The notes beneath the pieces are model-generated. The model did no database searches and was not told the origin of the DNA. It was given only the letters and a program-made list of their open reading frames with translations. This document shows, in pieces, positions 1,151 through 22,912 of a stretch of 32,000 nucleotides of DNA; position 1 is the stretch's first letter; each line of letters begins with the position of its first letter. The DNA comes from Erysipelothrix inopinata. Lineage in GTDB: Bacteria > Bacillota_I > Bacilli_A > Erysipelotrichales > Erysipelotrichaceae. The position numbers and the translations under genes were made by a program. The DNA lies in NCBI RefSeq assembly GCF_014396165.1, contig NZ_CP060715.1, positions 420,001 to 452,000 on the forward strand. The letters are read 5' to 3'.

Positions 1151-2947
1151 TTAATCTCCCTCACTAAATTGTGAGTTATAAAGAGTTGCGTAGAATCCAT
1201 CTTGAGCCAAGAGTTCATCATGCGTACCTTTTTCAACAATATCTCCCTTATCCATGACAAGAATAAGATCAGCATTACGAATTGTGGAAAGTCTGTGAGC
1301 AATAATAAAGCTCGTTCTTCCTACCATGAGTTGATCCAGTGCTTTTTGTATTAATACTTCAGTACGGGTATCAACAGAACTCGTAGCTTCATCCAAAATC
1401 ATAATCTTAGGATCCGCAAGAATCGCTCTCGCAATCGTTAAGAGTTGTTTTTGTCCTTGAGATATATTTGATGTATCTTCATTTAAGATTGTATCATATC
1501 CATCTGGAAGTGTCCTTACAAAATAGTCTACTTGTGCTTTCAACGCTGCTTCGTGAACTTCATCATCGGATGCTTCAAGCTTACCGTAGCGAATATTTTC
1601 CCGAATGGTATCACTGTATAACCATGTATCTTGGAGCACCATTCCAATAACTTCTCGTAATTCAGATCGTTTCACATCGCGGATATCAATACCATCAATT
1701 TTGATGGAACCACTGGTTACATCGTAGAATCTCATCAAGAGTTTCACAATTGTTGTTTTACCAGCTCCTGTAGGTCCTACAATTGCAATTTTTTGTCCTG
1801 GTTGAATTGTTGCGCTGAAGTCGTTGATAATAGGTACATTTACATCATAACCAAAGTGTACGTGATCAAATTCAACACTACCTTGAACTTCTTGTACATC
1901 GTGAGTTTCTTGAGTTTCTGAAATTTCTTCCGGTTGTTCAAGATAATCAAAGACACGTTCTGCAGCGGCAAGTGAGAGTTGTAATTGACTTGATAAGTTT
2001 CCCAACTGTGCAATCGGGTTCATAAAACTTCTCATATATTGAACGAAGGATTGAATGTCTCCAACACTAATAATTCCTTGTGTTGCAAACCATCCACCAA
2101 GTATACTTACAACAACATAGCCAAAGTTACCAATGAAGTTCATGATTGGATGAACCATACCTGAGAAGAAGTTACTCTTCCAAGCAGATGCATACAATTG
2201 ATCATTAACTTCATCAAATTGTTCAATCGATTTTTCTTCACCATTGAATGCTTTAATCAGTACATGACTTCCAAACATTTCTTCAATATGACTGTTTAAA
2301 TCTCCAAGATTTTTTTGTTGATCTTGGAAGAAACGTTGTGATTTAGAGAATACAAAGAACACCAGGCCAAATGAGAGTGGCAATACAAGAAGTGCTGCCA
2401 GTGTCATTTGCCAATTAATGGAGAACATCATGTAGAGAACTCCAATGATTGTTGTGACTGAAGTTAGAATTGAAGTTAAGCTACTTGTTAAGTTTGCATC
2501 GATAACATCAATATCGTTAGTAACATATGAAAGTACTTCCCCGACGGTTGTACCATCAAAATAACTAAGTGGTAATTTTTCAATTTTTTGATGCATATCA
2601 GTTCTAAGTTTGTACGTTACATTTCTTGAAATTCGAGCCATCATAACGCCTTGAATTAAACTAAATACTAAACTTAGTAAATAGACTACAAAGAGCCAAG
2701 TTAGAATAGATATGATTTTATCAAAATCAACACCACCCAAACCTTTAACACGATTTAATAAGCCTTCAAATAAAACAGTTGTTGCTTGACCCATAACTTT
2801 CGGTCCAATAATCGAGAAGATTGTGGAAGCTAGGGCAAAGATTAAGACGATAACAATTCCAACAGTATAGGGTTTGAGAAGTCCCCCTAATTTCGCAATA
2901 ACTTTCTTTTGATTACGAGGTTTTGAGTTTGTTTGATTATTTTTCAT
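1151..2947 (-). CDS. ABC exporter permease/ATPase fusion (type I exporter half-transporter) with a consensus-site NBD
   Basis: This 598-aa protein has a 6-TM N-terminal domain followed by an NBD. The NBD carries Walker A GPTGAGKTT, Q-loop VLQDT, Walker B IMILDE with the catalytic Glu, and H-loop IAHRLST. Its signature motif is non-canonical (ISQGQ rather than LSGGQ). The start overlaps the upstream partner gene by 11 nt. Confidence 0.9.
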   Translation of the reverse strand: MKNNQTNSKPRNQKKVIAKLGGLLKPYTVGIVIVLIFALASTIFSIIGPKVMGQATTVLFEGLLNRVKGLGGVDFDKIISILTWLFVVYLLSLVFSLIQGVMMARISRNVTYKLRTDMHQKIEKLPLSYFDGTTVGEVLSYVTNDIDVIDANLTSSLTSILTSVTTIIGVLYMMFSINWQMTLAALLVLPLSFGLVFFVFSKSQRFFQDQQKNLGDLNSHIEEMFGSHVLIKAFNGEEKSIEQFDEVNDQLYASAWKSNFFSGMVHPIMNFIGNFGYVVVSILGGWFATQGIISVGDIQSFVQYMRSFMNPIAQLGNLSSQLQLSLAAAERVFDYLEQPEEISETQETHDVQEVQGSVEFDHVHFGYDVNVPIINDFSATIQPGQKIAIVGPTGAGKTTIVKLLMRFYDVTSGSIKIDGIDIRDVKRSELREVIGMVLQDTWLYSDTIRENIRYGKLEASDDEVHEAALKAQVDYFVRTLPDGYDTILNEDTSNISQGQKQLLTIARAILADPKIMILDEATSSVDTRTEVLIQKALDQLMVGRTSFIIAHRLSTIRNADLILVMDKGDIVEKGTHDELLAQDGFYATLYNSQFSEGD

Positions 2948-7773: not shown

Positions 7774-7800
7774 TAAAAAAAATGACAGAAACTGTCATTT
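7774..7800 (-). terminator. Rho-independent terminator ending the queA operon
   Basis: A perfect 9-bp stem, aaatgacag with ctgtcattt, has a 3-nt loop. On the minus-strand RNA it is followed by a U8 run. The stop codon of the SGNH-like gene (7795-7797) lies in the stem. Confidence 0.75.
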
Positions 7801-8388
7801 GATTTCAATTAGATTTTCAATCGAGTCTGCGATTATTTGATAACTCGCACTTCGAGGTGTTACACCATTTAATTTTACAGGTTTATGTATACCATTGTTG
7901 ATAGCATAAGCGTTGATGGGGCCATCCAAAGATACAAAGCTAAAGCCAAATTGACGTACTAATCTTCGAATACCGGTAAGTTTACGATCCAAATCAAATC
8001 GTAAGCACTCACTCATTAACGGATTCACAACCATAAATGGTTCAAGGATAATAACTCGTTCATCATAGGATTCAACTTGATTCAAGATATCTTCATATAA
8101 TGTTATAAAACGATAATACTCTTCATAACGTCCTAAACTTGGACTGCGTTTTTGATCGATGGAATCAGAGATACCAACACTTAGGATAATTAAGTCAGGT
8201 TTGACAGCCTTAACTTCGTGTTTAATACGTCCGAGCAAATGGTCTAGTAATTCTTTATCATGACTTGAAACTACAATATTTAATTCAGGATGTGCCTCAC
8301 GCAAAAGCAGAGGAACACTTTTCTCAGATTTATCATCTATAATATGATCTCCAATGAATAATACTGTCGCATTCTTTTTAAGTTTCAT
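7795..8388 (-). CDS. SGNH/GDSL-fold protein with non-canonical catalytic motifs
   Basis: I prefer the start at MKLKKNATVLFIGDH because a GAGGTG RBS lies 6 nt upstream; the ORF-track start at 8418 has none. The overall block layout resembles GDSL hydrolases (FIGDHIID ... KPDLIILSVGISDSI ... LNGVTPRSASYQIIAD), but the signature residues are substituted. Confidence 0.6.
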   Translation of the reverse strand: MKLKKNATVLFIGDHIIDDKSEKSVPLLLREAHPELNIVVSSHDKELLDHLLGRIKHEVKAVKPDLIILSVGISDSIDQKRSPSLGRYEEYYRFITLYEDILNQVESYDERVIILEPFMVVNPLMSECLRFDLDRKLTGIRRLVRQFGFSFVSLDGPINAYAINNGIHKPVKLNGVTPRSASYQIIADSIENLIEIK

Positions 8389-8434
8389 GCAATCACCTCG
8401 CCGTTCAATATATACCACGCGTCTCTAACTTTAA

Positions 8435-8773
8435 CTATACTTGGAAAAATGCCCAACCACAATAGATTAACAACAAGTCTAGGAAATTTCCTGTTAAACC
8501 GAGTAGATTCAAGAGATTCGTGAATTCTGGTATGACAAAGAAATTCATACGGTAAGCAACGATGAATACTACCAAGATAGCAATCACCACTTTACCAAGC
8601 CAACGATTATTCTTTTTGGCATGCGGTGCTAAGTAATATCCGATAACCAAAAGTAAAATCATCCACAACAAGTCTAGAAAACCACTAAACTTCGCTGGAA
8701 GAAAACGTCCGATTAATTGATACAATAAAGCACTCACAATAATAACTAATAATGCACTCCAATAACGTTTCAT
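8435..8773 (-). CDS. Hypothetical membrane protein (112 aa, 3-4 TM)
   Basis: The ORF is hydrophobic throughout. Its start overlaps the upstream stop (TAATG), and an internal GAAGGAG RBS is present. It lies in the queA operon. Confidence 0.6.
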   Translation of the reverse strand: MKRYWSALLVIIVSALLYQLIGRFLPAKFSGFLDLLWMILLLVIGYYLAPHAKKNNRWLGKVVIAILVVFIVAYRMNFFVIPEFTNLLNLLGLTGNFLDLLLIYCGWAFFQV

Positions 8774-9291
8774 TACACAACTCCTTCATGTTTTAATCTT
8801 AAGAACATTCCAAACGCAAGACTCACACTTGGGATGATTGCTGAAACAATCCAAAGTAATGACATCCAATCTGGCTTCATGGTTGTAAACATTAAAGTTC
8901 CAAATATTGGATTTAAGAATGTATAGATAACCCACATATTATGACGAATGGTAATCCATGAATAAATGTAGGCAAATAAAAATACGACTAAGAATATGAT
9001 TGCCAAAATTAAGGCTGCACGATCCAATCCTTTAACTAAATTTTCTTTATGTCTTGGATAGGCAATTACAAGCAAATACCCAATAACACTATAAATTACA
9101 AAAGCATAAATTGAACATGCAATAACTTGAACAAAGATCGGTAAACTTCCTACAAGTTTCGTAAGTGGATGTCCACCACCATACATCATCAATTGAACAA
9201 TACTAATCGCTAAATGCGAGACGACAAAGACTGCGAGAAGAAGCAACGAATGTGATGATATTATTTTTTTTCCGATTCGAGAGTCACTCAT
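8773..9291 (-). CDS. Hypothetical membrane protein (172 aa, about 5 TM)
   Basis: An AAGGAGA RBS precedes the start and several hydrophobic helices are present. The gene begins 28 nt downstream of queA on the same strand. Confidence 0.6.
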   Translation of the reverse strand: MSDSRIGKKIISSHSLLLLAVFVVSHLAISIVQLMMYGGGHPLTKLVGSLPIFVQVIACSIYAFVIYSVIGYLLVIAYPRHKENLVKGLDRAALILAIIFLVVFLFAYIYSWITIRHNMWVIYTFLNPIFGTLMFTTMKPDWMSLLWIVSAIIPSVSLAFGMFLRLKHEGVV

Positions 9292-9319: not shown

Positions 9320-10360
9320 TTATATCACATGTGAGGTTTTCTTATGTGACAGAAACATGCTATCCCCAAAGGAGAAGAAACGGTACTCATTATCGACCGC
9401 ATGTTTGTAAGCATGATCAATCACATCTTTACCTGCAAAAGAACTTACCAACATAATTAATGTGGATTTAGGGAGGTGGAAGTTGGTAATGATTGCATCA
9501 ACCGCCTTCCATTTATACCCTGGATAAATAAATATTTCGCTATCACCATGACATGCTTTAAACTCTCCATACTCGCTCATAATCGTTTCAAGAGTCCGCA
9601 CAGAAGTCGTTCCTACCGCAACAATTCGACGTTTTTCCTCACGTGCATGATTTAGAATATCTGCAGTTTCTTGCGACATAAAGTATTCTTCTTTATGCAT
9701 TTTATGATTCAAGACATCATCAACCTTAACAGGTCTAAACGTTCCCAATCCCACATGCAATGTAACAGGAGTAATCGTGATTCCTTTATCTTTAATCTGT
9801 TGTAGCAATTCTTGAGTAAAGTGAAGTCCTGCTGTTGGTGCTGCAGCACTTCCTTCAACTTTTGAATAAACTGTTTGGTATCGTTCCTTATCTTCTAGTT
9901 TTTCATGAATATAAGGTGGTAGCGGCATTTGTCCAAGTTCATCCAATATTTCTAAGAAAATCCCATCAAAAACAAGATCAAAGAAACGAATTCCTTCTTC
10001 ACCAATTCCAGTACAAATAGCTTTAAGTTTCCCTTCACCAAAATCCAGTTCCGTTCCAACTTTTACTACCTTAGCATTCCCAACAAGACACTCTGCAGTT
10101 TTTCCTTCAAATTTTAGAATTAATAATTCTACATGAGCACCTGTCTCTGGTTTTGTCCCAAATAAACGAGCGGCAATTACGCGCGTATCGTTAACGACCA
10201 ACACATCACCTTCATTTAAGTAATCAATAATGTTATAAAAGTGTTTATCTTCTAAATTCATGTCATCTACTACCAGCAAACGTGATTCACTTCTTTTTTC
10301 AGAAGGTGTTTGTGCTATCAACGATTCCGGTAGATAAAAATCAAAATCATTTGTATTCAT
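9320..10360 (-). CDS. queA: S-adenosylmethionine:tRNA ribosyltransferase-isomerase
   Basis: The 346-aa protein starts with the typical QueA N-terminus [14 protein letters not shown]...RSESRLLVV. It also carries [33 protein letters not shown] and [10 protein letters not shown]. An AGGAGA RBS is present. Confidence 0.92.
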
Positions 10361-10433
10361 AATATTCTCCTAATCTTGTTTATTATACTCCAATTTTTAA
10401 ATGAGGCATAGTTTCTCGTGCCAAGCAATTTCT

Positions 10434-10457
10434 AAATATGATACTTCCATCATATTT
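10434..10457. promoter_or_regulatory. Perfect 9-bp inverted repeat AAATATGAT-N6-ATCATATTT in the queA/response-regulator divergent region; candidate operator or regulator box
   Basis: The repeat was read directly from the sequence. It ends 17 nt upstream of a TATAAT hexamer (10475-10480) and so overlaps the position where a -35 element would sit. That position has only a poor match to the -35 consensus. Confidence 0.4.
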
Positions 10458-10474
10458 TACTGACAAAAACACGT

Positions 10475-10480
10475 TATAAT
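10475..10480 (+). promoter_or_regulatory. Candidate -10 hexamer (TATAAT) for the TCS-ABC operon
   Basis: A consensus TATAAT lies 6 nt upstream of the response-regulator ATG (10487). This implies a leaderless or near-leaderless transcript. Only a weak, closely spaced AGGA sits in between. Confidence 0.4.
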
Positions 10481-10486
10481 AGGATT

Positions 10487-11131
10487 ATGAAAATATTCTT
10501 GGTGGAAGATGATACTGCGATAGTCTTTGGACTTCGTAAGTTTATGGAACTCAATGGGTGGGAAGTTATTGCATCGCTTACTTATCATGATGCGCTTCTC
10601 AATTTTAGTCATGATATCGATTTGTGTATTGTGGACATCGAACTTCCGGATGGTAATGGTCTTGATTTTTGTCGTCATATTAAATCCAATAGTAATATCC
10701 CTGTTATTTTCTTAACTGCCAAAAGTCATGAACGTACCGTAATTGAAGCCTTTGATTTGGGTGCGGATGATTATATTACAAAACCATTTCGATTGGATGA
10801 GTTAAAACGACGGATACTTGCTGTAACGCGACGAACACACACTGGAATTTATCATCATCAAAATATCACTTTAAACATTCATACCGCAACTGCACATCTT
10901 GATCATGACCCCATTAATTTAAGCACGCAAGAATACCGTTTACTATTGTATCTACTGAAACATCAGAATACTTTACTAACCCGTCAAGAACTAAACCACG
11001 TCATTTGGCAAACAGATGATTATATTACTGACAACGCACTCTCCGTTATTATTCGCCGTCTCAAAGAGAAATGCGATAATAAACTTCGAATTGAAACAGT
11101 CCATGGGAAAGGATACATTGTCATATCATGA
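10487..11131 (+). CDS. OmpR/PhoB-family response regulator
   Basis: The 214-aa protein has a receiver domain with EDD, the phospho-acceptor context CIVDIELPDG, FLTA and ITKPF. The C-terminal winged-helix region reads LTRQELNHVIW...RRLKEK...VHGKGYIV. Confidence 0.9.
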   Translation: MKIFLVEDDTAIVFGLRKFMELNGWEVIASLTYHDALLNFSHDIDLCIVDIELPDGNGLDFCRHIKSNSNIPVIFLTAKSHERTVIEAFDLGADDYITKPFRLDELKRRILAVTRRTHTGIYHHQNITLNIHTATAHLDHDPINLSTQEYRLLLYLLKHQNTLLTRQELNHVIWQTDDYITDNALSVIIRRLKEKCDNKLRIETVHGKGYIVIS

Positions 11132-12087
11132 AAATGCTACGCGATTCATTTATACAAAAAATGTTTATAAAACTAACGATGGTCTTCATTCTTTCCTGCC
11201 TCGTTTTCTACTTCATTCCTAACATTCTAGTTTTAATCATTGCTTTTATATTTCTAATCGGTCTTGTGTATCAGTATTTAAAACAACGAAACGACCAAGT
11301 TGAAGAACTCACTCAGTATATTAAAACGTTAAATAGTGGTAACTACCACTATTTTCTTGAGGCATATGATGAGGGAGAACTCGGTATTCTCTACTCCGAG
11401 CTTAACAAAACAATGGTGACGCTTAGAACTATGAATTCTAATTTACAGGATAAAAATGACTTTATTAATTCTTCCTTTGAAGACATCTCGCATCAAATTA
11501 AAACACCAATCACTGCACTCTCAATTCTCACAGACCTGAGACCACAAGATGATGAACTCGTCCTTGCTACTCGTGATCAAGTGAATCGGTTGGACCACCT
11601 CATTAGTGCGATTATGAGGTTAATTCAACTTGAAACAGCTCAGGTTACACTCAATATTGAAAAGATATCTTTAGAATGTTTGGTAAAAAACGTACTTAGT
11701 GATATCTATCCTTTAATCAAAAATCAAAACATAAAAATCGTAGTTGATGTACAAAGTGATGTTTATGGCGATGTAGGACAATACTATGAAGCACTCTATA
11801 ATATCCTTGTTAATAAAATAAAGTACGCAGAGACGACAATTTGGATAGAAGATGTGAAAACAAGTTTGACTCCTACCCTAAATATTTATGATGACGGTCC
11901 AGAAATTCCACATGATATTCGTGACCGTGTTTTTGAACGATTCTTTACGACACACCATCAACCTAATAGCCTTGGTATTGGTTTATCAGTTGCACGTCAA
12001 ATCATGATTCTACATGATGGAAATATCCGTGTAAAAGATGCGAACACATTTACAGTCATCTTCCCAAATATGATAGAACCGTCATAA
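11128..12087 (+). CDS. Intramembrane-sensing histidine kinase (BceS-like architecture)
   Basis: The 319-aa protein overlaps the response-regulator gene with an ATGA. Two N-terminal TM helices are joined by only about 3 residues (..VFYFIPNILVLII..). It has H-box ISHQIKTPITAL, N-box NILVNKIKYA, G1 box YDDGPEIP and G2 box GIGLSVARQI. Confidence 0.85.
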   Translation: MKMLRDSFIQKMFIKLTMVFILSCLVFYFIPNILVLIIAFIFLIGLVYQYLKQRNDQVEELTQYIKTLNSGNYHYFLEAYDEGELGILYSELNKTMVTLRTMNSNLQDKNDFINSSFEDISHQIKTPITALSILTDLRPQDDELVLATRDQVNRLDHLISAIMRLIQLETAQVTLNIEKISLECLVKNVLSDIYPLIKNQNIKIVVDVQSDVYGDVGQYYEALYNILVNKIKYAETTIWIEDVKTSLTPTLNIYDDGPEIPHDIRDRVFERFFTTHHQPNSLGIGLSVARQIMILHDGNIRVKDANTFTVIFPNMIEPS

Positions 12088-12113
12088 CCAAACAATCCTT
12101 ATCCCCTTATAAT
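12066..12113 (+). promoter_or_regulatory. Second copy of the AAATATGAT-N6-(G)TCATA box plus a TATAAT hexamer, just upstream of ATPase 1; candidate internal inducible promoter
   Basis: AAATATGAT lies at 12066-12074, a 6-nt spacer follows, and GTCATAACC lies at 12081-12089. TATAAT is at 12108-12113, 18 nt further on. This geometry mirrors the box and -10 pair at 10434-10480. The element overlaps the kinase stop codon. Confidence 0.35.
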
Positions 12114-12132
12114 GAAGTTAGAGGTGAAACAT

Positions 12133-12813
12133 ATGGAAATTTTAAATGTATCGAATTTAACAAAAGTCTATAAAACAGGGGGCGAATCAGTTTATGCTCT
12201 CAATGATCTTTCTCTAACCGTTAAACGTGGCGAATTCGTTGCGATAATGGGACCCAGTGGTAGTGGTAAGTCAACACTCCTCCATATTTTAGGTTGTGTT
12301 GATGAACCTACAGCGGGCTCCGTAACCATTGATGGTCATAATGTCAGTACTTTCAATGAAGAAAAGCTAACACTTTTTAGAAGACGTCATATTGGTCTTG
12401 TATACCAATTCTATAATCTCATACCCATTCTTGATGTGGAGAATAATATTAAACTTCCTCTTCTTCTTGATCAAACATCTGTTGACGAGGACTATTATCA
12501 AGAGCTTATCACACAGCTTGGATTACAAGACCGTTTAAATCACTTGCCTAATCAGCTCTCTGGGGGCCAACAGCAGCGTGTTTCAATTGCAAGAGCACTT
12601 ATATCTCATCCTTCATTATTACTGGCTGATGAACCAACAGGAAACTTAGATCAAGCCAACTCACAAGAAATTATTGATATCCTCAAACACGCGCACAAAG
12701 AGTATTCACAAACAATTATCCTCATCACTCATGATGAGACAATCGCTTCGCAAGCTGATCGTATTATCCATATTGAAGATGGAAAAATAATCAGAGATGA
12801 GGTCTTGCGATGA
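12133..12813 (+). CDS. ABC transporter ATP-binding protein, MacB/FtsE/BceA-like (module 1)
   Basis: I prefer the start at MEILNVSNL because a GAGGTG RBS lies 6 nt upstream. The protein has Walker [11 protein letters not shown]-loop YQFYNL, signature LSGGQQQR, Walker [13 protein letters not shown] and H-loop ILITHD. Confidence 0.9.
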   Translation: MEILNVSNLTKVYKTGGESVYALNDLSLTVKRGEFVAIMGPSGSGKSTLLHILGCVDEPTAGSVTIDGHNVSTFNEEKLTLFRRRHIGLVYQFYNLIPILDVENNIKLPLLLDQTSVDEDYYQELITQLGLQDRLNHLPNQLSGGQQQRVSIARALISHPSLLLADEPTGNLDQANSQEIIDILKHAHKEYSQTIILITHDETIASQADRIIHIEDGKIIRDEVLR

Positions 12814-15392
12814 ACATAACCAAAAGAATAAGTTTACAAAACGTAAAAAAGAATTGGAAGGCGTCACTTCTAACGATTATTAGTATTTCTCTTTCCGTCG
12901 CCATGACAACCATGGTCGTCGCTTCTCTTTTTGGTGTTTATAAGACCTACGAAGAAGATAAGCTCTATAAGAGTTCAAAATGGAATGTAGAAGTTGGTAT
13001 TCAGGATGACGCAGATGAAATTATCAGTGCTCTTGGCGAGATTGTAGATTCCTACGCTGTCATTAGTCGCGGAAAGTATGTTGACGTCGGTACAGAATTG
13101 GATCGTAGAAGCATGTCAATTGATACTATCGATTTTAAATCAAATTTTTCAATGTTTTCAGATGAAGTAAAAGTCGGGAAAGACTCATTTGATGATTTAA
13201 TAATTGAAGGAAGACTACCACAAAGCAAAGATGAGCTCATCATTACGTCACGTTCTAAAACCGAGTTTAGCCTAAATCTCGATGATATCGTCACTATTAA
13301 ACAAAGTGTCGACAATTACGAAAATCCATCTAATGATGAAATATTCAGCGAGGCCAGGATAGTTGGTATTATGGCCGGTTCTTCTAATGGTATAGATTTT
13401 ACTGGAGCACTAAGACAATATTATCCTTCAGATAGTAATGATAATTGGAAAACTCTCTATATCAAGTTTAAGCCTGGAACAAAAAACATTGAAAAAATAA
13501 TGGAACCAATTGGTAAAGAGTTTGATCCTTCGTTACCTAATCACGATGGCATTCGTATTCTTCGATATAATGAAACCTATAATACAATTCTCGGGATGCA
13601 ATTTAAGTTAGACACCACAAAAGTTATTTTAGGTGTCGCTTCAGCTGTTTTTATCGTTTTACTGTCACTCGCAACATTTTCGCTGATTACTAATGCTTTC
13701 TATAATAACATCCAAACACAAGTTCATGACTATGGTTTATTGCGTAGTATTGGGGCAACCAAAAAACAACTTAAGTCCATGATTCGCTTTGAAGGATATA
13801 TTTTACTTTCGATTGGGTTGGCATTCGGGATTGGAGTGGGATTTGGAATAGGAAAGCTTCTCCTTAACTACATCAATAGTATTTTTTCTTTTTCAAATCA
13901 AGCTTTCGGAACAACAATTAACTGGGTTTTCTCACCTGTTCTTCCTTGGCAAGGCATCCTAATTATCACTGTCTTCTCCTTCATCCTAGTTAGCTTTCCA
14001 TTGAATCATTCTATAAAAAAATTATTTAAAATGACTTCGATCGATGCTATCCGAGAAAATAACCGTTACGTGAGAAACAAACTCAAGATATATTCAAGGA
14101 ATCTCTCTAAGTCTCTAGCAAAACAATACAGTATCTCAGAAAAATCTAAATTTAGAGGTATTAAAATATCATTAACCATTACCATTGTGATTTTCATCAC
14201 TACAATGAGCTTTATAAAAATTGGTTTTAGTAATATGGGAGAATACAACACTTCAAAATATAATGTCGAGGTAGCGCCTCAGCATTTCTATGCCGCCTCG
14301 CTTGATAGTTTTAATAAAAAAAATGAAGAAATGCGGCATATTCTAGAAAAGGATTCAAATACAAAAATCTACTTAATATTTTCTCAATATAATATTTCAA
14401 TCCGTGATAAAAACTTTGATCCTCTAAAGATATATAAGGAAGTTCCTCAAAACAACTCAGCTAATAGCGATATTATCAAACTATTAATTATGGATGATCA
14501 CTCTTTTGACATTGTTCGCAACTCTTTAGACATCCAAGAAAAAAATATCGATTCGATTCTTGTAAACTATGGCACTATCTATGATTTCGACCGTGTAAGT
14601 TCTGATCACACTTATGAAGGTATTTATTTTGATTTTGACTCTACAGAGTCTCTATATATTGGGGAGTCAGTCTATAATGATAAAAATCCTGACTCTTATA
14701 TATTTAACCCTATTTTTGAGATTCCTGTTGACGCTGTCATCGCAAGAGAATTACCCGATTTCGACTCTCTGTCTTATCCCTATATTATTGTGAATTCTGA
14801 TAGTGTCCGTTTTAATGCAATCCAAGAATCACTCCTAAAAAGTGAAGCTGCTCACCTAAACAGATTTGCAGCGATAGTGCAAACTCATGATAGCTTTGAG
14901 ACCGTTAAATTATTTGATTCAGAAGATTATTATATTTCAAATCAAGATGTCGATAAAGCAATTCCAAAGCTTATTGAAAAAACGATTACAAACATTCTTG
15001 TCTCAATTATGACATTTATTACGCTTGTTTGTTTATTAAACGTTGTGAACATATCACTTACAAATCTCAACACTCGCAAACGCGAACTTGCGGCATTGCG
15101 TTCCGTAGGAATGTCTCAAAAACAAGTTCAGAAAATGCTGTTCTATGAAAGTGTTCGATTAGCTTGGAATCCTTTAATAATGGGTACATTAATAGGTATT
15201 TTTGCTTCATACTCAATCATCGCCATTGTGAATCTATTTATTATCAATGGTCAACCTATTGCTTTCAGTATTGATATCAGAGCTATTCTTATTTCGTGGT
15301 GTATTCTTCTCTTACTAATCGTATCAAATACAATTATCACAATTGTGAAGAGTAGAAATCATAGTATTATCGAGAGCTTGCGTAATTTATAG
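12810..15392 (+). CDS. Double-FtsX ABC permease (module 1), 860 aa, about 8 TM with two large extracytoplasmic domains
   Basis: The start overlaps the ATPase gene with an ATGA. By hydropathy the layout is TM1, a loop of about 225 aa, TM2-4, a basic cytoplasmic linker, TM5, a loop of about 260 aa, then TM6-8. There are two FtsX-like segments (LLRSIGATKKQLKSMIRFEG and LAALRSVGMSQKQVQKMLFYES). Confidence 0.85.
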   Translation: MNITKRISLQNVKKNWKASLLTIISISLSVAMTTMVVASLFGVYKTYEEDKLYKSSKWNVEVGIQDDADEIISALGEIVDSYAVISRGKYVDVGTELDRRSMSIDTIDFKSNFSMFSDEVKVGKDSFDDLIIEGRLPQSKDELIITSRSKTEFSLNLDDIVTIKQSVDNYENPSNDEIFSEARIVGIMAGSSNGIDFTGALRQYYPSDSNDNWKTLYIKFKPGTKNIEKIMEPIGKEFDPSLPNHDGIRILRYNETYNTILGMQFKLDTTKVILGVASAVFIVLLSLATFSLITNAFYNNIQTQVHDYGLLRSIGATKKQLKSMIRFEGYILLSIGLAFGIGVGFGIGKLLLNYINSIFSFSNQAFGTTINWVFSPVLPWQGILIITVFSFILVSFPLNHSIKKLFKMTSIDAIRENNRYVRNKLKIYSRNLSKSLAKQYSISEKSKFRGIKISLTITIVIFITTMSFIKIGFSNMGEYNTSKYNVEVAPQHFYAASLDSFNKKNEEMRHILEKDSNTKIYLIFSQYNISIRDKNFDPLKIYKEVPQNNSANSDIIKLLIMDDHSFDIVRNSLDIQEKNIDSILVNYGTIYDFDRVSSDHTYEGIYFDFDSTESLYIGESVYNDKNPDSYIFNPIFEIPVDAVIARELPDFDSLSYPYIIVNSDSVRFNAIQESLLKSEAAHLNRFAAIVQTHDSFETVKLFDSEDYYISNQDVDKAIPKLIEKTITNILVSIMTFITLVCLLNVVNISLTNLNTRKRELAALRSVGMSQKQVQKMLFYESVRLAWNPLIMGTLIGIFASYSIIAIVNLFIINGQPIAFSIDIRAILISWCILLLLIVSNTIITIVKSRNHSIIESLRNL

Positions 15393-15436
15393 TCAAACAA
15401 ACTTTACCATTGTTAACTATACATAGAGGAGATCAA

Positions 15437-16117
15437 ATGGAAATTCTTAAAGTCAGTAACTTAACAAAAATATATAAATCCGGTGATGAGTCACTTTATG
15501 CACTGAATGATTTATCACTGTCTATCAATCGTGGCGAGTTTGTGGCGATTATGGGTCCAAGTGGTAGCGGCAAATCAACACTCTTACATATTTTAGGATG
15601 TGTCGATGAGCCTACATCAGGTTCTGTGACCATTGATGGTCATAATGTCAGTACTTTCAATGAAGAAAAACTAACACTTTTTAGAAGACGTCATATTGGT
15701 CTTGTATACCAATTCTATAATCTCATACCCATTCTTGATGTGGAGAACAATGTTAAACTTCCTCTTCTTCTCGATCAAACATCTGTTGACGAGGATTATT
15801 ATCAAGAGATTATTACACAGCTTGGATTACAAGACCGTTTAAATCACTTGCCTAATCAGCTCTCGGGGGGCCAACAGCAGCGTGTTTCAATTGCGAGAGC
15901 ACTTATATCACATCCTTCATTACTACTGGCTGATGAACCAACAGGAAACTTGGATCAGGCCAACTCACAAGAAATTATTGATATCCTCAAACACGCGCAC
16001 AAAGAGTATTCACAAACAATTATCCTAATCACTCATGACGAGACAATCGCTTCGCAAGCTGATCGTATTATCCACATTGAAGATGGAAAAATAATCAGAG
16101 ATGAGGTCTTACGATGA
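15437..16117 (+). CDS. ABC transporter ATP-binding protein (module 2), paralog of 12133..12813
   Basis: I prefer the start at MEILKVSNL because an AGAGGAG RBS lies 5 nt upstream. The Walker and signature motifs match module 1. The protein differs from module 1 at roughly 11 of 226 residues, and most differences fall in the first 61. Confidence 0.9.
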
Positions 16118-18699
16118 ACATAACCAAAAGAATAAGTTTACAAAACGTAAAAAAGAATTGGAAGGCGTCACTTCTAACGGTTATTAGTATTTCTCTTTCC
16201 GTCACCATGACAACTATGGTTGTCGCTTCTCTTTTTGGTGTTTATAAGACTTACGAAGAAGATGCTCTGTACAAAAGTTCAAAGTGGAATGTAATGATAC
16301 AACTTGAGGATGACGCAGATGAAATTATCAGGGCTCTTGGAGATGTTGTGGATTCCTATGCCATCGTAAGTGATAGTAAAGAAATAATATTAAATGACAA
16401 TCAAATGTTCGGAAATATATCGGTTTCTACTGTTGACTTCGAAGATAATTATTTACTTTTCTCAGATATGCTCAAAGAACATAGTAACTCTTTTGATGAT
16501 CTAATTATCGAAGGGCGAATGCCTCAAAATAAAGATGAACTCATTATCACTTCTCGATCAAAAATTGAACACGATTTAAACTTAGGTGATATTGTAACCG
16601 TGAAGCAAAACATCCCCATTGAAAATGGGCATTTTGAACCAAGACATTATTCAGACGCTACAATTGTAGGAATTACCGAAGAATCATCAATTGAAATTAC
16701 TCATTCGAGTGCGCTAATGTCTTTTGACACTTCTGATCCATATAAATATCTATATATCAAATTTAAACCTGGAACTAAAAGCATCGAAAATTTAATAGGA
16801 AACATCAAAAATAATGTTTTCCCCAGTAAACACAATCCGGAAGCAGCTCGTCATGTTAGATATAACAATAACTACAATTCAATTATCGGAATGCAATACA
16901 GTCTAGACTATACCAAGTTGGTTTTAGGAGGCTCATCTACTGTATTTATTGTTCTTTTATCTCTTGCTACATTTTCACTTATCACCAATGCATTCTATAA
17001 TAATATTCAAACACAGGTTCACGATTACGGTTTATTACGTAGCATCGGAGCCACAAAAAAACAACTAAAGTCTATGATACGATTTGAAGGATATATTCTA
17101 CTTACTATTGGATTAGTCTTAGGAATCGGACTTGGGTTTGGTATTAGTAAACTTCTACTCACATATATAAATAGCATTTTCACTTTTTCAAATCAAAATT
17201 TTGGAACTAGTTCTGATTGGGTTTTCTATCCCAGACTACCGTGGGAGGGTGTCCTTATTGTTACCGCCTTCTCATTCATTCTTGTTAGTTTCCCTTTAAA
17301 TTATTCAATCAAAAAACTCTTCAAAATGACTTCCATTGATGCAATTCGAGAAAACTCACGTTACTCAAGAAATAAGATTAAAATAAATTCAAAAAATCTC
17401 CCTAAATCTATGGCAAAACAATACAATATCTCTGATAAATCAAAATTTAAGGGAATTAAAATATCGTTGAGCATAACAATTGCGATATTCGTGACCACTA
17501 TGAGTTTTATTAAAATTGGTTTCGGTAATATGGGGGAATACAATACCTCTAGTTATAATGTTGAGATTAGACCTTCTGCTTATAATGCTTCATCAATAAG
17601 CAGTATAAAAAAAATCAATGAAGAAATAGACAATGTTTTATCTAATGACTCAAATACAGAAAACTACATTTTAATACCAGAATACTATGTTTCCATAAGA
17701 GATACTAATTCAAATCATTTGAAGTTTGTCGATGGAATTAAAGATGCAAATAACGAAATGAGTGATTACATTCCTCTTTGGGCTTTGAACGGAAAGTCGT
17801 TTGAGACTATTTACAACTCTCTAGACATAAATCAAAAAGGAATTGATACAATTTTTCTAAATTACTTTAGCAGTCTTGACTATACTTGGTATGATTCTTC
17901 CGAAAAATATGACGGCGCATTTTTTGATATTGATAGTTTAAATTCATTGTCGGTAGGAGCAGTAAATTTCGACAATGAATCCTCTGAGGAAGATGACCGC
18001 TTCAAATTTCAGTCTGTTTTTGATCTCCCTATTGACTATATATTAACTACACCTTTGCCCAATTTCGAGCAACTTGTAACTTCGCCAATACTCATTATGA
18101 ATGCTGACAGCCCTCGACTTAATTTTATTCAAGAAACCATGCACAGTACTGATTTAATATACCTAAATCGCATTACAGCAAAGATAGAATCCTCAGATAG
18201 TTTCTCAACGGTTAAACTGTTTGATGTAGATAAATATTATTCATCAAATCAAGATGTTGACAAAGCGATGCCAAAGCTTATTCAAAAAACAATTACAAAC
18301 ATACTCGTTTCAATTATGGCGTTTATCGTCCTTGTCTGTTTATTAAACGTTGTGAACATATCACTAACAAATCTCAACACTCGCAAACGTGAACTCGCTG
18401 CATTACGTTCAGTCGGGATGTCTCAAAAGCAAATTCAGAAAATGCTATTTTATGAAAGTGTTCGGTTAGTTTGGTCACCTTTAATATTTGGTACATTAAT
18501 AGGGGTTCTAGCTTCATTCTCTATAATCGTAATTGTGAATTTATTTGTTGTGAATGGGCAACCTCTCGCTTATGGTATAGACATTAAAGCAATACTTATT
18601 TCGTGGAGTATACTGCTTCTACTCATCGTATCAAATACAATCATCACAATTGTGAAAAGTAAAAATCATAGTATTATCGATAGCTTGCGTAACCTCTAA
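16114..18699 (+). CDS. Double-FtsX ABC permease (module 2), 861 aa, paralog of 12810..15392
   Basis: The start overlaps the ATPase gene with an ATGA and the layout is the same 8-TM, two-loop arrangement. TM and cytoplasmic segments are near-identical to module 1. The two large loops are strongly diverged and contain indels. Confidence 0.85.
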   Translation: MNITKRISLQNVKKNWKASLLTVISISLSVTMTTMVVASLFGVYKTYEEDALYKSSKWNVMIQLEDDADEIIRALGDVVDSYAIVSDSKEIILNDNQMFGNISVSTVDFEDNYLLFSDMLKEHSNSFDDLIIEGRMPQNKDELIITSRSKIEHDLNLGDIVTVKQNIPIENGHFEPRHYSDATIVGITEESSIEITHSSALMSFDTSDPYKYLYIKFKPGTKSIENLIGNIKNNVFPSKHNPEAARHVRYNNNYNSIIGMQYSLDYTKLVLGGSSTVFIVLLSLATFSLITNAFYNNIQTQVHDYGLLRSIGATKKQLKSMIRFEGYILLTIGLVLGIGLGFGISKLLLTYINSIFTFSNQNFGTSSDWVFYPRLPWEGVLIVTAFSFILVSFPLNYSIKKLFKMTSIDAIRENSRYSRNKIKINSKNLPKSMAKQYNISDKSKFKGIKISLSITIAIFVTTMSFIKIGFGNMGEYNTSSYNVEIRPSAYNASSISSIKKINEEIDNVLSNDSNTENYILIPEYYVSIRDTNSNHLKFVDGIKDANNEMSDYIPLWALNGKSFETIYNSLDINQKGIDTIFLNYFSSLDYTWYDSSEKYDGAFFDIDSLNSLSVGAVNFDNESSEEDDRFKFQSVFDLPIDYILTTPLPNFEQLVTSPILIMNADSPRLNFIQETMHSTDLIYLNRITAKIESSDSFSTVKLFDVDKYYSSNQDVDKAMPKLIQKTITNILVSIMAFIVLVCLLNVVNISLTNLNTRKRELAALRSVGMSQKQIQKMLFYESVRLVWSPLIFGTLIGVLASFSIIVIVNLFVVNGQPLAYGIDIKAILISWSILLLLIVSNTIITIVKSKNHSIIDSLRNL

Positions 18700-18702
18700 G
18701 AA

Positions 18703-18727
18703 AAGACGTCACAAATTGTGACGTCTT
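18703..18727. terminator. Bidirectional terminator between convergent permease 2 and tpx
   Basis: A perfect 10-bp stem, aagacgtcac with gtgacgtctt, has a 5-nt loop. U-rich sequence follows on both transcripts (ttttctt on the minus RNA, aatttatttt on the plus RNA). The hairpin overlaps the tpx stop codon. Confidence 0.75.
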
Positions 18728-19217
18728 AATTTATTTTATTTAGATAACCTATAACCGCCTTATAATCAGGCTCATCAGTGATGTTTTTTGTTACGTATAT
18801 CTTCTCAATATAGCCTAATTCATCAACAATCATAACAGTACGCGCGTACTTATTAATGATTGGAATCCATACACCTAAGCGTTTCGCAATATCACCTGAC
18901 TTATCACTGATCATTGTTGCTTTCAAACCTTCTTGAGCACACCAGTGGAGAAAGTCGTTATTTGAGTTTGTTGAAATGCTTACGAGTTGGACACGATCAT
19001 CATTTTGAAATGATTCAATAAACTTACGTGTTTGAATAGAGCATACTTTGGTATTTATATCAGGGAACGTACTAATAACTGTTTTCTTCCCTAATAAATT
19101 TACATGTGAGAAAGTATCACCATACACCGTTTCTACATCGAAATAGGGAAATTTCTTTCCAAGTACGAGTTCACTCTCTTTTAAATTCAGTGGAATTCCG
19201 AATACTTTTGTTTTCAT
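18726..19217 (-). CDS. tpx: Thiol peroxidase (atypical 2-Cys peroxiredoxin, Tpx family)
   Basis: The 163-aa protein has STFPDINTKVCSIQTRKF, matching the Tpx peroxidatic-Cys motif (E. coli SVFPSIDTGVCAASVRKF). The resolving-Cys context is HWCAQEGL. A strong AGGAGG RBS is present. Confidence 0.85.
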   Translation of the reverse strand: MKTKVFGIPLNLKESELVLGKKFPYFDVETVYGDTFSHVNLLGKKTVISTFPDINTKVCSIQTRKFIESFQNDDRVQLVSISTNSNNDFLHWCAQEGLKATMISDKSGDIAKRLGVWIPIINKYARTVMIVDELGYIEKIYVTKNITDEPDYKAVIGYLNKIN

Positions 19218-19226
19218 ACAGACCTC

Positions 19227-19691
19227 CTAAAACATTTGTCCGTTAAGTAGGACATATTTCATAAATTGTTTTTCAATAACATGGTTGTAATCTTCAATGT
19301 ATTTCAAATGTTCTTTATCCATATTTAATGGTAAATGTTCAAGATCAAAAAATTCTATTTGTGTTTGATTTTCTTTAAATTTAAATAAATCTGTATAGTA
19401 TACTGTTGTAACGATAAATAATTCTTCTTCAAATGCTTCTTGTCTTTCAGTAAATGCATTTGAAATGATTAAGTTTTCAATTTCTAAATTAAATTCATTG
19501 ATGCAATCTTGTGTTAAAGATGCTTCTAAAGTTTCTTTCGGGTGAATCGTTGTCTCAGGTAGTTGCCATAGGTTACTATCATGAGTACTTTGAAGCAGTC
19601 CAATACGATTCTCTTCATCAACGAGAATTAAAACAGCTTTAGGAATAAATGTAGAACGTGGTTGTTGCGTTTTCTTCTTAAAATGTTTCAT
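19227..19691 (-). CDS. Nudix-fold protein with a degenerate Nudix box
   Basis: I prefer the start at MKHFKKK because a GGAGG RBS lies 8 nt upstream. The segment WQLPETTIHPKETLEASLTQDCINEFNLEI aligns to the Nudix box GX5EX7REUXEEXGU, but with G->T, RE->QD, EE->NE and G->N. The gene stops 9 nt before the tpx start. Confidence 0.55.
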   Translation of the reverse strand: MKHFKKKTQQPRSTFIPKAVLILVDEENRIGLLQSTHDSNLWQLPETTIHPKETLEASLTQDCINEFNLEIENLIISNAFTERQEAFEEELFIVTTVYYTDLFKFKENQTQIEFFDLEHLPLNMDKEHLKYIEDYNHVIEKQFMKYVLLNGQMF

Positions 19692-19712
19692 GGGAATTGC
19701 CTCCATGAACAT

Positions 19713-19741
19713 ATTATCAACCGTATCGAAGTTGGTTTCAA
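19713..19741 (-). promoter_or_regulatory. Candidate sigma-A promoter for the nudix-like/tpx operon
   Basis: On the minus strand the sequence reads TTGAAA (19736-19741), then a 17-nt spacer, then GATAAT (19713-19718). It lies immediately upstream of the GGAGG RBS. Confidence 0.5.
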
Positions 19742-19849
19742 GTCATTCACACGCTTTTACATACTTCCACAAATAATTGCAAAAATTATGAAACAATTTT
19801 AAAATTACCATTTCAGGCTTATTATTGCGGTATTCTAACACTATGAACA

Positions 19850-19886
19850 TAAAAGGAAACATCCCAAATGTGATGTTTCCTCTTTT
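19850..19886 (-). terminator. Rho-independent terminator after tgt (hairpin usable in both directions)
   Basis: A perfect 10-bp stem, aggaaacatc (19854-19863) with gatgtttcct (19872-19881), has an 8-nt loop and is flanked by A and T runs. On the minus RNA it is followed by UUUUAUGUU. Confidence 0.7.
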
Positions 19887-19925
19887 ATATTTCATATGAT
19901 TTTCATATTTAAAGATTCTATTTGA

Positions 19926-22912
<2,987 letters not shown>

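Follow-up and report, generated by a model that had tools for sequence, protein, structure and literature searches.

How does a histidine kinase with almost nothing outside the membrane come to share an operon with two paralogous ABC transporters, and is such an arrangement already characterized? We analysed a 32,000-nucleotide stretch of the Erysipelothrix inopinata genome (the window), in which positions 10434–18727 form one operon of six genes, with all open reading frames on the + strand, flanked by queA and genes for small membrane proteins, redoxin, NUDIX and tgt. The features of the locus are as follows.

10434..10457, + strand: perfect inverted repeat AAATATGAT-N6-ATCATATTT, candidate operator of the response regulator
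10475..10480, + strand: TATAAT −10 box, 6 nt ahead of the regulator start codon
10487..11131, + strand: OmpR/PhoB-type response regulator (RR), 214 aa; Pfam Response_reg 4.4e-25, Trans_reg_C 5.8e-17
11128..12087, + strand: intramembrane-sensing histidine kinase (HK), 319 aa; HATPase_c 1e-13
12133..12813, + strand: ATPase A1, 226 aa from ATG 12133, reading frame opening at 12112; ABC_tran 6.7e-36
12270..12990, + strand: gene-conversion tract, module-1 copy, 3′ two-thirds of the ATPase gene and first ~60 permease codons
12810..15392, + strand: permease P1, 860 aa; 8 transmembrane (TM) helices, two FtsX units, two extracytoplasmic domains (ECDs)
15437..16117, + strand: ATPase A2, 226 aa from ATG 15437, reading frame opening at TTG 15410; ABC_tran 3.2e-36
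15574..16294, + strand: gene-conversion tract, module-2 copy, offset 3304 nt from the module-1 copy
16114..18699, + strand: permease P2, 861 aa; 8-TM, two-ECD layout as in P1
18703..18727, + strand: intrinsic terminator hairpin, 11-pair stem with 5 G–C pairs, then a T-rich tail

An earlier note had described an OmpR-type regulator and a 319-aa kinase followed by two consecutive ATPase–permease pairs with ATGA overlaps and permeases of 860 and 861 aa, and the reading frames and Pfam domains bear this out; ATGA overlaps occur at RR/HK, A1/P1 and A2/P2. The regulator reached no NCBIfam equivalog cut-off. A1 likely starts at ATG 12133, with GAGGTG ahead of it and a resulting 226 aa that matches the length called for relatives, and A2 likely starts at ATG 15437, with GAGGAG ahead. 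No terminators were found between the six genes, and the hairpin that closes the operon is common to the convergent redoxin gene. Within the 126-bp queA–RR intergenic region, the repeat at 10434–10457 is the sole inverted repeat found, and 17 nt separate the end of its right arm from the −10 box downstream. This repeat is kept in the related loci L081 and L083, and L085, otherwise unalignable there, carries a degenerate AAATATGA-N8-TCATTTAT at an equal distance from TATAAT. The interval between TATAAT and the RR start makes Shine–Dalgarno spacing unusable, and to judge from the sequence the operon mRNA is probably leaderless. TATAAT-N6-ATG recurs in the window, L081, L083, L085 and L001, which represent several Erysipelothrix species with differing flanking sequence, whereas 23 loci of this class from outside Erysipelothrix lack it and have Shine–Dalgarno sequences.

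In each permease, two MacB-like 4-TM units are fused directly to one another, and the two ECDs that they carry are dissimilar. Hydropathy and an AF2 model give TM1, ECD1 (residues ~45–266), TM2–4, a basic, cytoplasmic linker (403–449), TM5, ECD2 (~475–723) and TM6–8, amounting to 8 TM helices without an extra TM pair. Pfam places two FtsX stretches in each permease (1e-26, 9e-26) and matches MacB_PCD to ECD1 weakly (21.2 and 19.3 bits versus a 27-bit cut-off). The P1 model (pLDDT 71, pTM 0.61) contains 8 long TM helices, coupling helices at 305–314 and 757–766, and a poorly modelled ECD1 (pLDDT 33–60); its top Foldseek match is YbbP (9GE7; E 5.7e-17, TM-score 0.51–0.54), and its type VII fold also matches BceB, LolE and MacB. 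The proposal that these permeases depart from the BceB layout is thus confirmed: in BceB the TM helices number exactly 10 and a single ECD lies between TM7 and TM8 (PMC11009047, PMC3023708), whereas P1 and P2 have 8 TM helices, no TM5–6 pair and two ECDs. As in MacB and LolCDE, each P1 or P2 half is a 4-TM unit whose ECD separates TM1 from TM2, whose coupling helix links TM2 to TM3 and which has the C-terminal amphipathic motif, but the MacB and LolCDE units are separate chains in homo- or heterodimers, and MacB has a fused NBD and the partners MacA and TolC. A1 and A2 give their best NCBIfam alignments to the MacB NBD (1e-69) and LolD (3e-69). In E. coli YbbAP(-TesA), too, the type VII permease is one pseudo-dimeric chain with two ECDs, there built from Porter and Sabre subdomains, and the ATPase is a separate protein that binds it 2:1 (PMC12646458). 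By contrast with P1 and P2, YbbP has 10 TM helices with TM5–6 as a linker and ~9–10% identity in structural alignment, and YbbAP is from a Gram-negative organism and has a periplasmic SGNH hydrolase partner and no two-component link. The top NCBIfam match of P1 is the ADOP family (TIGR03434), which also comprises duplicated FtsX permeases of ~800 aa; membership was ruled out at 45.3 bits versus a cut-off of 622, with one FtsX unit covered. ABC3 porters with 4, 8 or 10 TMS have been described (PMC3654945), a solved structure exists for fused two-ECD permeases such as YbbP (PMC5985334, PMC12646458), and the 8-TM fusion belongs to the known variants of ABC3/type VII topology. Of the fused MacB-like pseudo-dimer suggested earlier, the two FtsX units and two differing ECDs stand, but the fused architecture had already been described.

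Divergence between the modules is concentrated outside the membrane. A1 and A2 are 95% identical and P1 and P2 64%, the latter figure combining TM blocks at 82–95% with ECD1 at 48% and ECD2 at 40%. Purifying selection acts on the TM blocks (dN 0.01–0.18, dS saturated), indicating that both module copies are maintained, and residues 281–320 are the most conserved part of the permease (dN 0.01).

The kinase comprises two hydrophobic TM helices (residues ~12–29 and 32–50) joined by 'PN', a loop of 2–3 residues, followed by a HAMP-like linker, a His box (SHQIKTP) and a HATPase_c domain; its Pfam HisKA match, at 25.5 bits, lies just under the 26.9-bit cut-off. The intramembrane-sensing topology claimed for a BceS-type kinase is therefore present, but the sequence is not specifically BceS-like: BceS ranks about 20th at 35.9 bits, and the generic kinase HK853 scores higher at 57.6 bits. 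As far as tested, kinase and regulator fall outside the BceS/BceR sequence clade, making transporter-dependent sensing an analogy. In the BceRS–BceAB modules of Bacillota (B. subtilis Bce, Psd and Yxd), too, the genes for an OmpR-type regulator and for a two-TM kinase whose linker is shorter than 10 residues adjoin those for a separate ATPase and an FtsX-type permease bearing a large, sequence-divergent ECD, and transporter/two-component co-evolution and a probable stoichiometry of one permease to two ATPases are shared. Unlike in classical bce loci, one promoter region here serves the two-component and transporter genes as a single operon, and the transporter genes have no regulated promoter of their own.

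A two-component system with one 8-TM module is a widespread conserved arrangement and not specific to the window. In the best 80 of at least 592 related loci, the order RR-HK-ATPase-permease occurs about 25 times; the kinases there measure 314–358 aa, and in the 22 whose two TM helices are resolved the loop is 3–9 aa long. A further 34 or so are arranged ATPase-permease-RR-HK, and in these the kinase reaches ~404 aa and its loop ~75 aa. A neighbour-joining tree of the permeases splits cleanly by kinase type and gene order, which indicates co-evolution as reported for Bce modules. Eight TM helices and two large loops are predicted in 75 of 84 family permeases and 10 TM helices in none; published Bce surveys demanded exactly 10. 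We found no characterized homologue (NCBIfam holds no specific family, annotation names are generic, and the literature was searched), and nothing in the literature on an 8-TM two-ECD permease architecture coupled to a two-component system. The earlier suggestion of an uncharacterized one-kinase/two-transporter configuration survives to that extent, but its logic is known from S. aureus NsaS/BraS, a single sensor-less kinase for which BraDE is the sensor and VraDE the detoxifier (PMC6291627), the single-module unit is widespread and the tandem varies between strains. Although NsaRS/BraRS likewise combines one such kinase with two paralogous FtsX-type ABC transporters, BraDE and VraDE are both 10-TM BceAB-type with vraDE elsewhere in the genome, whereas two 8-TM two-ECD permeases differing mainly in their ECDs stand in tandem in the kinase operon here. 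S. pneumoniae Vex123-VncRS, compared by description only, also places two FtsX-type permease units and one ATPase beside a two-component system, but Vex1 and Vex3 are separate proteins (PMC9637936). An E. rhusiopathiae 'vex23-vncRS' locus, its regulator labelled 'luxR', is annotated as a vancomycin-tolerance candidate in a genome report, and the role of the vex locus in vancomycin tolerance is disputed (PMC9637936).

We propose, with a probability of about 0.5, that the operon is a self-contained envelope-stress sensing and detoxification module, Bce-like in action but built on a different type VII ABC permease. Each permease would bind two copies of its own ATPase (1:2, as in BceAB and YbbAP), and ATP-driven mechanotransmission through stalk helices would move ECDs that recognize, then release or expel, a ligand at the membrane surface, most likely an antimicrobial peptide, alone or complexed with a lipid II-cycle intermediate. 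The kinase, blind to the outside, would rest against the conserved transporter TM scaffold and read its activity (flux sensing), phosphorylating a regulator that may then bind the inverted repeat adjoining the −35 position and raise transcription of the whole, probably leaderless, six-gene operon in positive autoregulation. Sensor-less kinases rely on Bce transporters (PMC5985334, PMC11009047), and BceS attaches to BceB at its N-terminal FtsX half, close to TM3 (PMC10314905), the equivalent of which here is the highly conserved block 281–320. With nearly all their differences confined to the ECDs, the two modules may broaden the ligand range or divide sensing from detoxification in the manner of BraDE and VraDE.

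Two-component systems paired with type VII ABC transporters can, however, sense on their own, as HssRS-HrtAB does. It is doubtful, if far from fanciful, that the transporters are output only and that the two-TM kinase directly senses membrane perturbation or a membrane-dissolved ligand, the ABC modules being induced effectors with no signalling role. HssS itself senses haem at the membrane and induces the MacB-like ABC transporter HrtAB (PMC11237747), the kinase of the window is not BceS-like in sequence, and with one promoter region for all six genes simple autoregulated induction would suffice. Yet the outer loop has just 2–3 residues between plain hydrophobic helices, the strict co-phylogeny of permease clade and kinase type exceeds what co-regulation needs, and the TM scaffold stays constant while the ECDs vary.

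YbbAP, the nearest fold with a solved structure, acts together with a hydrolase on lipids and hydrophobic compounds, not on peptides (PMC12646458). The module might by that precedent extract bile salts, fatty acids or lysolipids, possibly handing them to a secreted or wall-associated partner atop the ECDs, as YbbAP-TesA extracts hydrophobic compounds (PMC12646458); the top structural match to a two-ECD permease and the GDSL lipase gene near the double module of strain HDW6C fit this idea. We regard it as improbable, because similarity to YbbP in sequence is negligible (NF041854, 30.9 bits versus a cut-off of 999, P2 only), YbbP is missing among the PDB sequence matches and has 10 TM helices against 8 here, no conserved linked secreted hydrolase was found in the best 80 of at least 592 loci, and PMC12646458 ties no two-component system to YbbAP.

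The tandem double module is present in some strains only. A lone module occupies this locus in E. anatis and in four assemblies that are conspecific or nearly so (together L081/82, L083/84, L086, L087, L088), L089 is a second strain keeping the double, and strain HDW6C has an older, much more diverged one, with a GDSL lipase gene close by. A 720-bp gene-conversion tract links the modules of the window, with 88–99% DNA identity versus 42–83% elsewhere and dS of 0.08–0.20 (0.08 over the first 40 permease codons) against saturation elsewhere; the short-read contig L089 stops inside the module-2 copy. Such a near-identical tract can drive unequal exchange, and this, with the single modules of the other strains, could make the second module a by-product, redundant or in decay, of unequal crossing-over where repeats abound. 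That it lacks a distinct role is very unlikely, however: both reading frames are intact with strongly purifying TM blocks, the ECDs are just 40–48% identical and the module is thus not a recent copy, and L089 and HDW6C retain their doubles. That the module exports a peptide produced by its own cell, or confers immunity to it, is the least credible reading, for although some FtsX/MacB-type ABC systems, such as AS-48EFGH, confer bacteriocin immunity (PMC5985334) and the ATPases match the putative bacteriocin-export subfamily TIGR03608 (3e-59, under cut-off), bacteriocin precursor, modification and processing genes are absent from the window flanks and no bacteriocin genes were seen in syntenic loci.

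Between strains of E. inopinata the two-component genes are near-identical, whereas at the transporter genes one divergent allele replaces another. Between the window and L081, dS is 0.02–0.03 for queA, RR and HK, versus 0.25 for the ATPase and 0.2–1.55 for the permease, and the flanks are 96–100% identical. Alleles of the E. inopinata group share TM blocks at 78–100% identity, with ECD1 at 42–64% and ECD2 at 36–61% between allele types. ECD1 and ECD2 reassort independently: permease P0003 joins the ECD1 of P1 (97%) to the ECD2 of P0004 (98%).

Under the sensing and detoxification reading, populations would hold kinase and regulator fixed while recombination exchanges transporter alleles and ECD cassettes; phage or immune pressure could equally account for the hypervariable ECDs. 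The operon appears to be a widespread, so far unstudied relative of the Bce modules, which sense and resist antimicrobial peptides; such a peptide role here we infer only. What is new is the contrast between fixed two-component genes and swapped transporter alleles, together with the reassorting ECDs, the 720-bp conversion tract and the strain-variable double module, and such exchange would be expected if the ECDs are specificity determinants under diversifying pressure.

The operon is best filed as a Bce-like two-component and type VII ABC module on a permease with eight transmembrane (TM) helices and two extracytoplasmic domains (ECDs), of which this strain stacks two hypervariable transporter alleles. 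What the earlier note observed is confirmed, and its interpretation is partly supported. Our ORF survey of the window recovered all six proposed genes on the + strand, amid neighbours lying almost entirely on the − strand. ATGA overlaps join the regulator to the kinase and each ATPase to its permease, and the kinase–A1 and P1–A2 gaps measure 24–45 nt and contain no terminator, which we sought there. The ATPases probably start at ATG 12133 and ATG 15437, as a GAGG motif precedes each and the resulting 226 aa matches the length called in relatives.

Features of the operon and its surroundings (positions in the window)
1151-5105, − strand, two ABC_membrane+ABC_tran half-transporters of 598 and 722 aa, about 5 kb upstream
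7795-9291, − strand, three conserved genes adjoining queA, for one protein of 207 aa and two small ones with several TM helices (112 and 172 aa)
9320-21083, region in which queA and tgt, both − strand, flank the operon
10434-10457, inverted repeat AAATATGAT-N6-ATCATATTT
10475-10489, TATAAT box and regulator ATG
10487-11131, + strand, OmpR-type response regulator, 214 aa
11128-12087, + strand, kinase, 319 aa
12133-12813, + strand, ATPase A1 (module 1), probable start
12810-15392, + strand, permease P1 (module 1), 860 aa
13052-13315, − strand, 87-aa ORF antisense within the P1 gene, probably spurious
15437-16117, + strand, ATPase A2 (module 2), probable start
16114-18699, + strand, permease P2 (module 2), 861 aa
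18703-18727, strong terminator hairpin at the operon end

The site, with queA on one side and redoxin through tgt on the other, is syntenic across the relatives compared. Redoxin and NUDIX-like genes lie between operon and tgt in the window, and two close relatives (L081 and L086) carry an extra gene of 194–202 aa, absent from the window, between a 154-aa gene and tgt. A Pfam search gave no match for the 207-, 112- and 172-aa proteins, whose genes stay beside queA in close relatives and strain HDW6C and, in E. anatis, still form a group of three but lack queA (loci L081–L088); at the start of the 207-aa protein, a ‘VLFIGDHI’ strand recalls, by eye only, a GDSL motif. In E. anatis, a homologous-looking half-transporter pair lies directly downstream of the single two-component/ABC module (L088, 9792-13737).

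The kinase has two TM helices, at about residues 12–29 and 32–50, joined by a loop of 2–3 residues, and its only Pfam domains are HisKA (weak) and HATPase_c. By TM helices and Pfam content it falls within the topological class of intramembrane-sensing kinases, which Mascher is said to have defined in 2006 by an N-terminal input region limited to two TM helices less than about 25 aa apart, lacking both extracytoplasmic and cytoplasmic sensor domains. The OmpR-type assignment of the regulator comes from Pfam, and its closest solved relatives are BasR, KdpE and RegX3. Kinases of Bce-like modules have exactly two TM helices and an extracytoplasmic linker of 1–20 aa (PMC3023708), a description that fits this kinase. 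The BceS-type layout proposed in the earlier note stands for topology, whereas the kinase sequence is not demonstrably of Bce type: in a comparison of scores only, BceS (8G3A_D) reached 35.9 bits (E = 4.7e-8) and ranked about 20th among solved kinases, outscored by about 19 generic kinases such as HK853 (57.6 bits).

Of the mechanisms weighed for this operon, we favour a Bce-like one, at a probability of roughly 0.5. The ECDs of a complex of one permease with two ATPases would engage a ligand at the membrane surface, ATP-driven mechanotransmission would remove it, the sensor-less kinase would read transporter activity, and the phosphorylated regulator would activate the operon. The kinase might instead sense the membrane directly, as HssS does, which we judge unlikely; the Bce-like mechanism is favoured by the kinase topology, by the co-phylogeny of permease and kinase, and by the extreme conservation of the N-terminal TM2–4 block of the permease, equivalent to the block at which BceS docks on BceB (PMC10314905).

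Hydropathy predicts eight TM helices in each permease, in agreement with an AlphaFold2 model of P1 (23-sequence alignment; pLDDT 71, pTM 0.61), with an ECD of about 222 aa after TM1 (about residues 45–266), another of about 250 aa after TM5 (about 475–723) and two FtsX stretches (Pfam, 1e-26). The model has eight long TM helices, with TM2 and TM6 each followed by a short coupling helix; in both model and hydropathy, residues 403–449 make up a basic cytoplasmic linker that is non-hydrophobic and lacks an extra TM pair. YbbP and BceB have ten TM helices with TM5–6 as a linker, and carry two ECDs and one ECD, respectively (PMC12646458, PMC5985334); lacking that linker pair, P1 and P2 represent an 8-TM direct-fusion form. 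Eight helices and two ECDs rule out an ordinary BceB fold of ten helices and one ECD, as the earlier note had anticipated. Its description of a fused MacB-like pseudo-dimer was likewise correct in the eight helices, two FtsX segments and two ECDs, but the topology is not new, as ABC3 porters had already been described with ‘four, eight, or ten TMSs’ (PMC3654945). A1 and A2 are MacB/LolD-like by NCBIfam and align to the MacB nucleotide-binding domain (NBD) and LolD at 1e-69, and the transporters show the hallmarks of type VII (MacB/FtsX, ABC3) systems: a 4-TM FtsX unit, a large ECD between TM1 and TM2 of that unit, and a separate MacB/LolD-like NBD. MacB_PCD (PF12704), present in many homologues, scored 21.2 and 19.3 bits against ECD1 (cut-off 27 bits), and the order of secondary structure in the model is compatible with Porter and Sabre subdomains, at a pLDDT of 33–60 for ECD1.

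Foldseek matches of the P1 model in the PDB
E. coli YbbP, E = 5.7e-17, TM-score 0.51–0.54 (best match)
BceB, E about 1e-12
LolE/LolC, E about 1e-11 to 1e-6
MacB, E about 1e-10 to 1e-8
YtrF, E about 1e-9
HrtB, E about 1e-6

By sequence alone, PDB matches were marginal (PsdB, 5e-5; MacB, 8e-4), and YbbP was not among them at E ≤ 1. P1 matches an ABC transporter permease from Erysipelothrix inopinata at 100% identity; looking up P1 and P2 by exact sequence yielded no entry. A YbbAP-like handling of lipids or amphiphiles, whose permease gives the best structural match, is in our estimation improbable. Membership of the YbbP family (NF041854; PDB 9GE6-8) was ruled out at 30.9 bits, for P2 only, against a cut-off of 999, and the TM5–6 pair that joins the two duplicated halves of the ten-helix YbbP (PMC12646458) is missing from P1 and P2. 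In the 80 related loci, screened for regulator, kinase, ATPase and permease, we noticed no conserved linked counterpart of TesA, the periplasmic SGNH hydrolase partner of YbbP; only the HDW6C locus has a GDSL lipase nearby. Curated cut-offs also ruled out the ADOP duplicated permeases (TIGR03434; 45.3 bits for P1 and 39.8 for P2 against 622.3) and the LolCE family.

Set beside the criteria for Bce-like modules, which we took from Coumes-Florens 2011 and the Orlando review of 2024, the operon departs in its permeases, with eight TM helices where exactly ten are demanded and two ECDs in place of one of about 200–250 aa between TM7 and TM8, and conforms in its genetics, with the ABC genes adjoining an OmpR-type two-component system in one operon and a permease tree congruent with kinase type. 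Surveys of Bce modules demanded exactly ten TM helices and the TM7–8 loop (PMC3023708), and would thus have missed this class. With one genome taken per species, a scan by degenerate pattern confirmed at least 592 loci; the ORFs of the best 80 were searched with four window proteins, and kinase TM helices were predicted. ABC genes adjoin a two-component system in about 63 of these best 80. About 25 have the order regulator–kinase–ATPase–permease, with kinases of 314–358 aa whose loops span 3–9 aa in the 22 loci with two resolved TM helices; these loci come from Bacillaceae, Planococcus, Ruminococcus, Lachnospiraceae, Christensenellaceae and Erysipelothrix. A further group of about 34 among the best 80 has the order ATPase–permease–regulator–kinase; the kinases here measure about 404 aa and their loops about 75 aa. 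In three more loci the transporter genes follow a long-loop kinase, and the remainder are mostly cut by contig ends. The opposite-order loci (within L002–L080) form a sister clade of 8-TM two-ECD permeases very common in metagenome-assembled genomes (MAGs) of gut Clostridia and Bacilli.

The branches of a neighbour-joining permease tree correspond exactly to kinase type and to gene order, and eight TM helices with two large loops were predicted in 75 of 84 family permeases, ten helices in none. Together with the survey of gene order, this argues that sensor-less kinases and 8-TM two-ECD transporters form a conserved, co-evolving module class. In the literature searched we found no paper on this class, and NCBIfam has no model specific to it; the family is widespread and apparently unstudied. 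The papers on B. anthracis HitPQRS and pneumococcal Vex123-VncRS, considered as possible characterised homologues, leave the permease architecture undescribed.

Module number is variable at this site; among the other 80 loci (the best 80 of at least 592), two tandem permeases occur only in L030.

Transporter modules at the locus in relatives
L081/82, L083/84, L086 and L087 (four conspecific or close assemblies), one module
L088, E. anatis, one module
L085, Erysipelothrix sp. HDW6C, two modules, far more diverged, then a 1030-aa NBD-FtsX fusion
L089, 3.2-kb contig from another sample, permease allele P0003 then the 5′ end of an A2-type ATPase

The ATPase 5′ end in L089 is 95% identical to window 15393-15660 and 72% identical to the 5′ end of A1; L089 thereby documents a second strain with a double module. 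That contig ends within the repeated tract, so a genuine double does break at the repeat; collapse of doubles into single-module contigs is judged unlikely, as those of L081 (197 kb) and L083 (209 kb) continue across the locus and carry distinct permease alleles. In the neighbour-joining tree P1 and P2 are sisters, one HDW6C permease (HDW6C-b) groups with E. anatis and the other (HDW6C-a) branches earlier, pointing to more than one duplication at this site. In HDW6C the fusion following the double module is a single-chain ABC_tran+FtsX protein resembling MacB (L085, 12076-15781), itself followed by a convergent gene for a 187-aa GDSL lipase; TesA, the partner of YbbAP, is also an SGNH/GDSL hydrolase. 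L030 (994-10547; uncultured Bacilli MAG) encodes a regulator, a kinase with a 63-aa loop, one ATPase and tandem permeases of 827 and 848 aa; unexplained gaps of 0.7 and 1.2 kb lie between the genes, and a second ATPase was not detected.

Modules 1 and 2 share 88–99% DNA identity over about 12270-12990 (the 3′ two-thirds of the ATPase gene and the 5′ end of the permease gene; 15574-16294 in module 2), 62–90% in TM-coding parts and 42–66% in ECD-coding parts. Across that tract dS is 0.08–0.20, and elsewhere it is saturated, with dN of 0.01–0.18 in TM blocks and 0.4–0.7 in ECDs. This pattern indicates paralogues that are old or imported from a divergent lineage, both under purifying selection and joined by a recent gene-conversion tract. 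Recent duplication in situ is ruled out by the saturated dS outside the 720-bp tract, and is also contradicted by the 3′ TM block of P2, which lies nearer to other strains’ alleles (95% identity to P0002 and P0004) than to P1 (86%). With both copies under purifying selection, we regard a redundant second module as very improbable. S. aureus provides a precedent in which one such kinase serves two transporters, BraDE as sensor and VraDE as detoxifier (PMC6291627); the two modules may divide labour in this way or, alternatively, cover two ligand ranges. Bacteriocin self-immunity is the least plausible role that we considered.

Flanks and two-component genes are 96–100% identical between strains. 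Between the window and L081, dS is 0.02–0.03 for queA, regulator and kinase, 0.25 for the ATPase and 0.2–1.55 for the permease, with the breakpoint at the kinase/ATPase junction; in L086 the breakpoint falls mid-permease, after ECD1. Across seven alleles the TM blocks are 78–100% identical, and between allele types ECD1 is 42–64% and ECD2 36–61% identical. The ECDs reassort, with P0003 combining a P1-type ECD1 (97%) and a P0004-type ECD2 (98%). These patterns are the sequence signature of recombinational allele or cassette exchange limited to the transporter, with kinase and TM scaffold fixed. Compared with L081, L086 and L087, window 12100-18750 is a recombination hot spot, a hypervariable locus inside one species.

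The inverted repeat is the sole one in the 126-bp spacer between queA and the regulator gene and ends 17 nt upstream of the TATAAT box; L085 carries a degenerate copy at equal spacing. We infer that the regulator binds this candidate operator. TATAAT stands 6 nt before the regulator ATG in the window, L081, L083, L085 and L001, which represent several Erysipelothrix species, despite differing flanks, which suggests a leaderless operon mRNA, from TATAAT-N6-ATG, in Erysipelothrix; as a family-wide feature this is ruled out by ordinary Shine-Dalgarno leaders at 23 loci of this module class in other genera. Scanning for promoter consensus sequences yielded 50 sites where chance predicts 43 and was uninformative, and no separate promoter signal or repeat was found before either ATPase gene, so the whole operon is probably autoregulated.

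A broader reading, which we advance tentatively, is that these operons belong to a second, unclassified Bacillota lineage of sensor-less two-component modules coupled to transporters. Its type VII permeases would have eight TM helices and two ECDs, so that the ten-TM filter excluded it, and its kinase would read transporter activity. In Erysipelothrix, both ECDs might then be specificity cassettes that can be exchanged independently: recombination would swap them and at times stack them in tandem while kinase and TM scaffold stay fixed, giving the population a repertoire of receptors for peptides or amphiphiles. Should the kinase depend on the permeases, type VII ABC flux sensing would not be bound to the BceB fold and would reach a large family, matched at a minimum of 592 loci, in gut Clostridia, Bacilli and Erysipelotrichia. 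The natural variants, which pair ECD1 and ECD2 in different ways and have either one module or two on a constant kinase and TM scaffold, offer a ready-made specificity experiment on whether ECDs set ligand specificity and how one kinase handles two transporters. Because Erysipelothrix counts among its members pathogens of animals and humans that are intrinsically resistant to glycopeptides, an inducible module for envelope defence in this genus would also be of practical interest.
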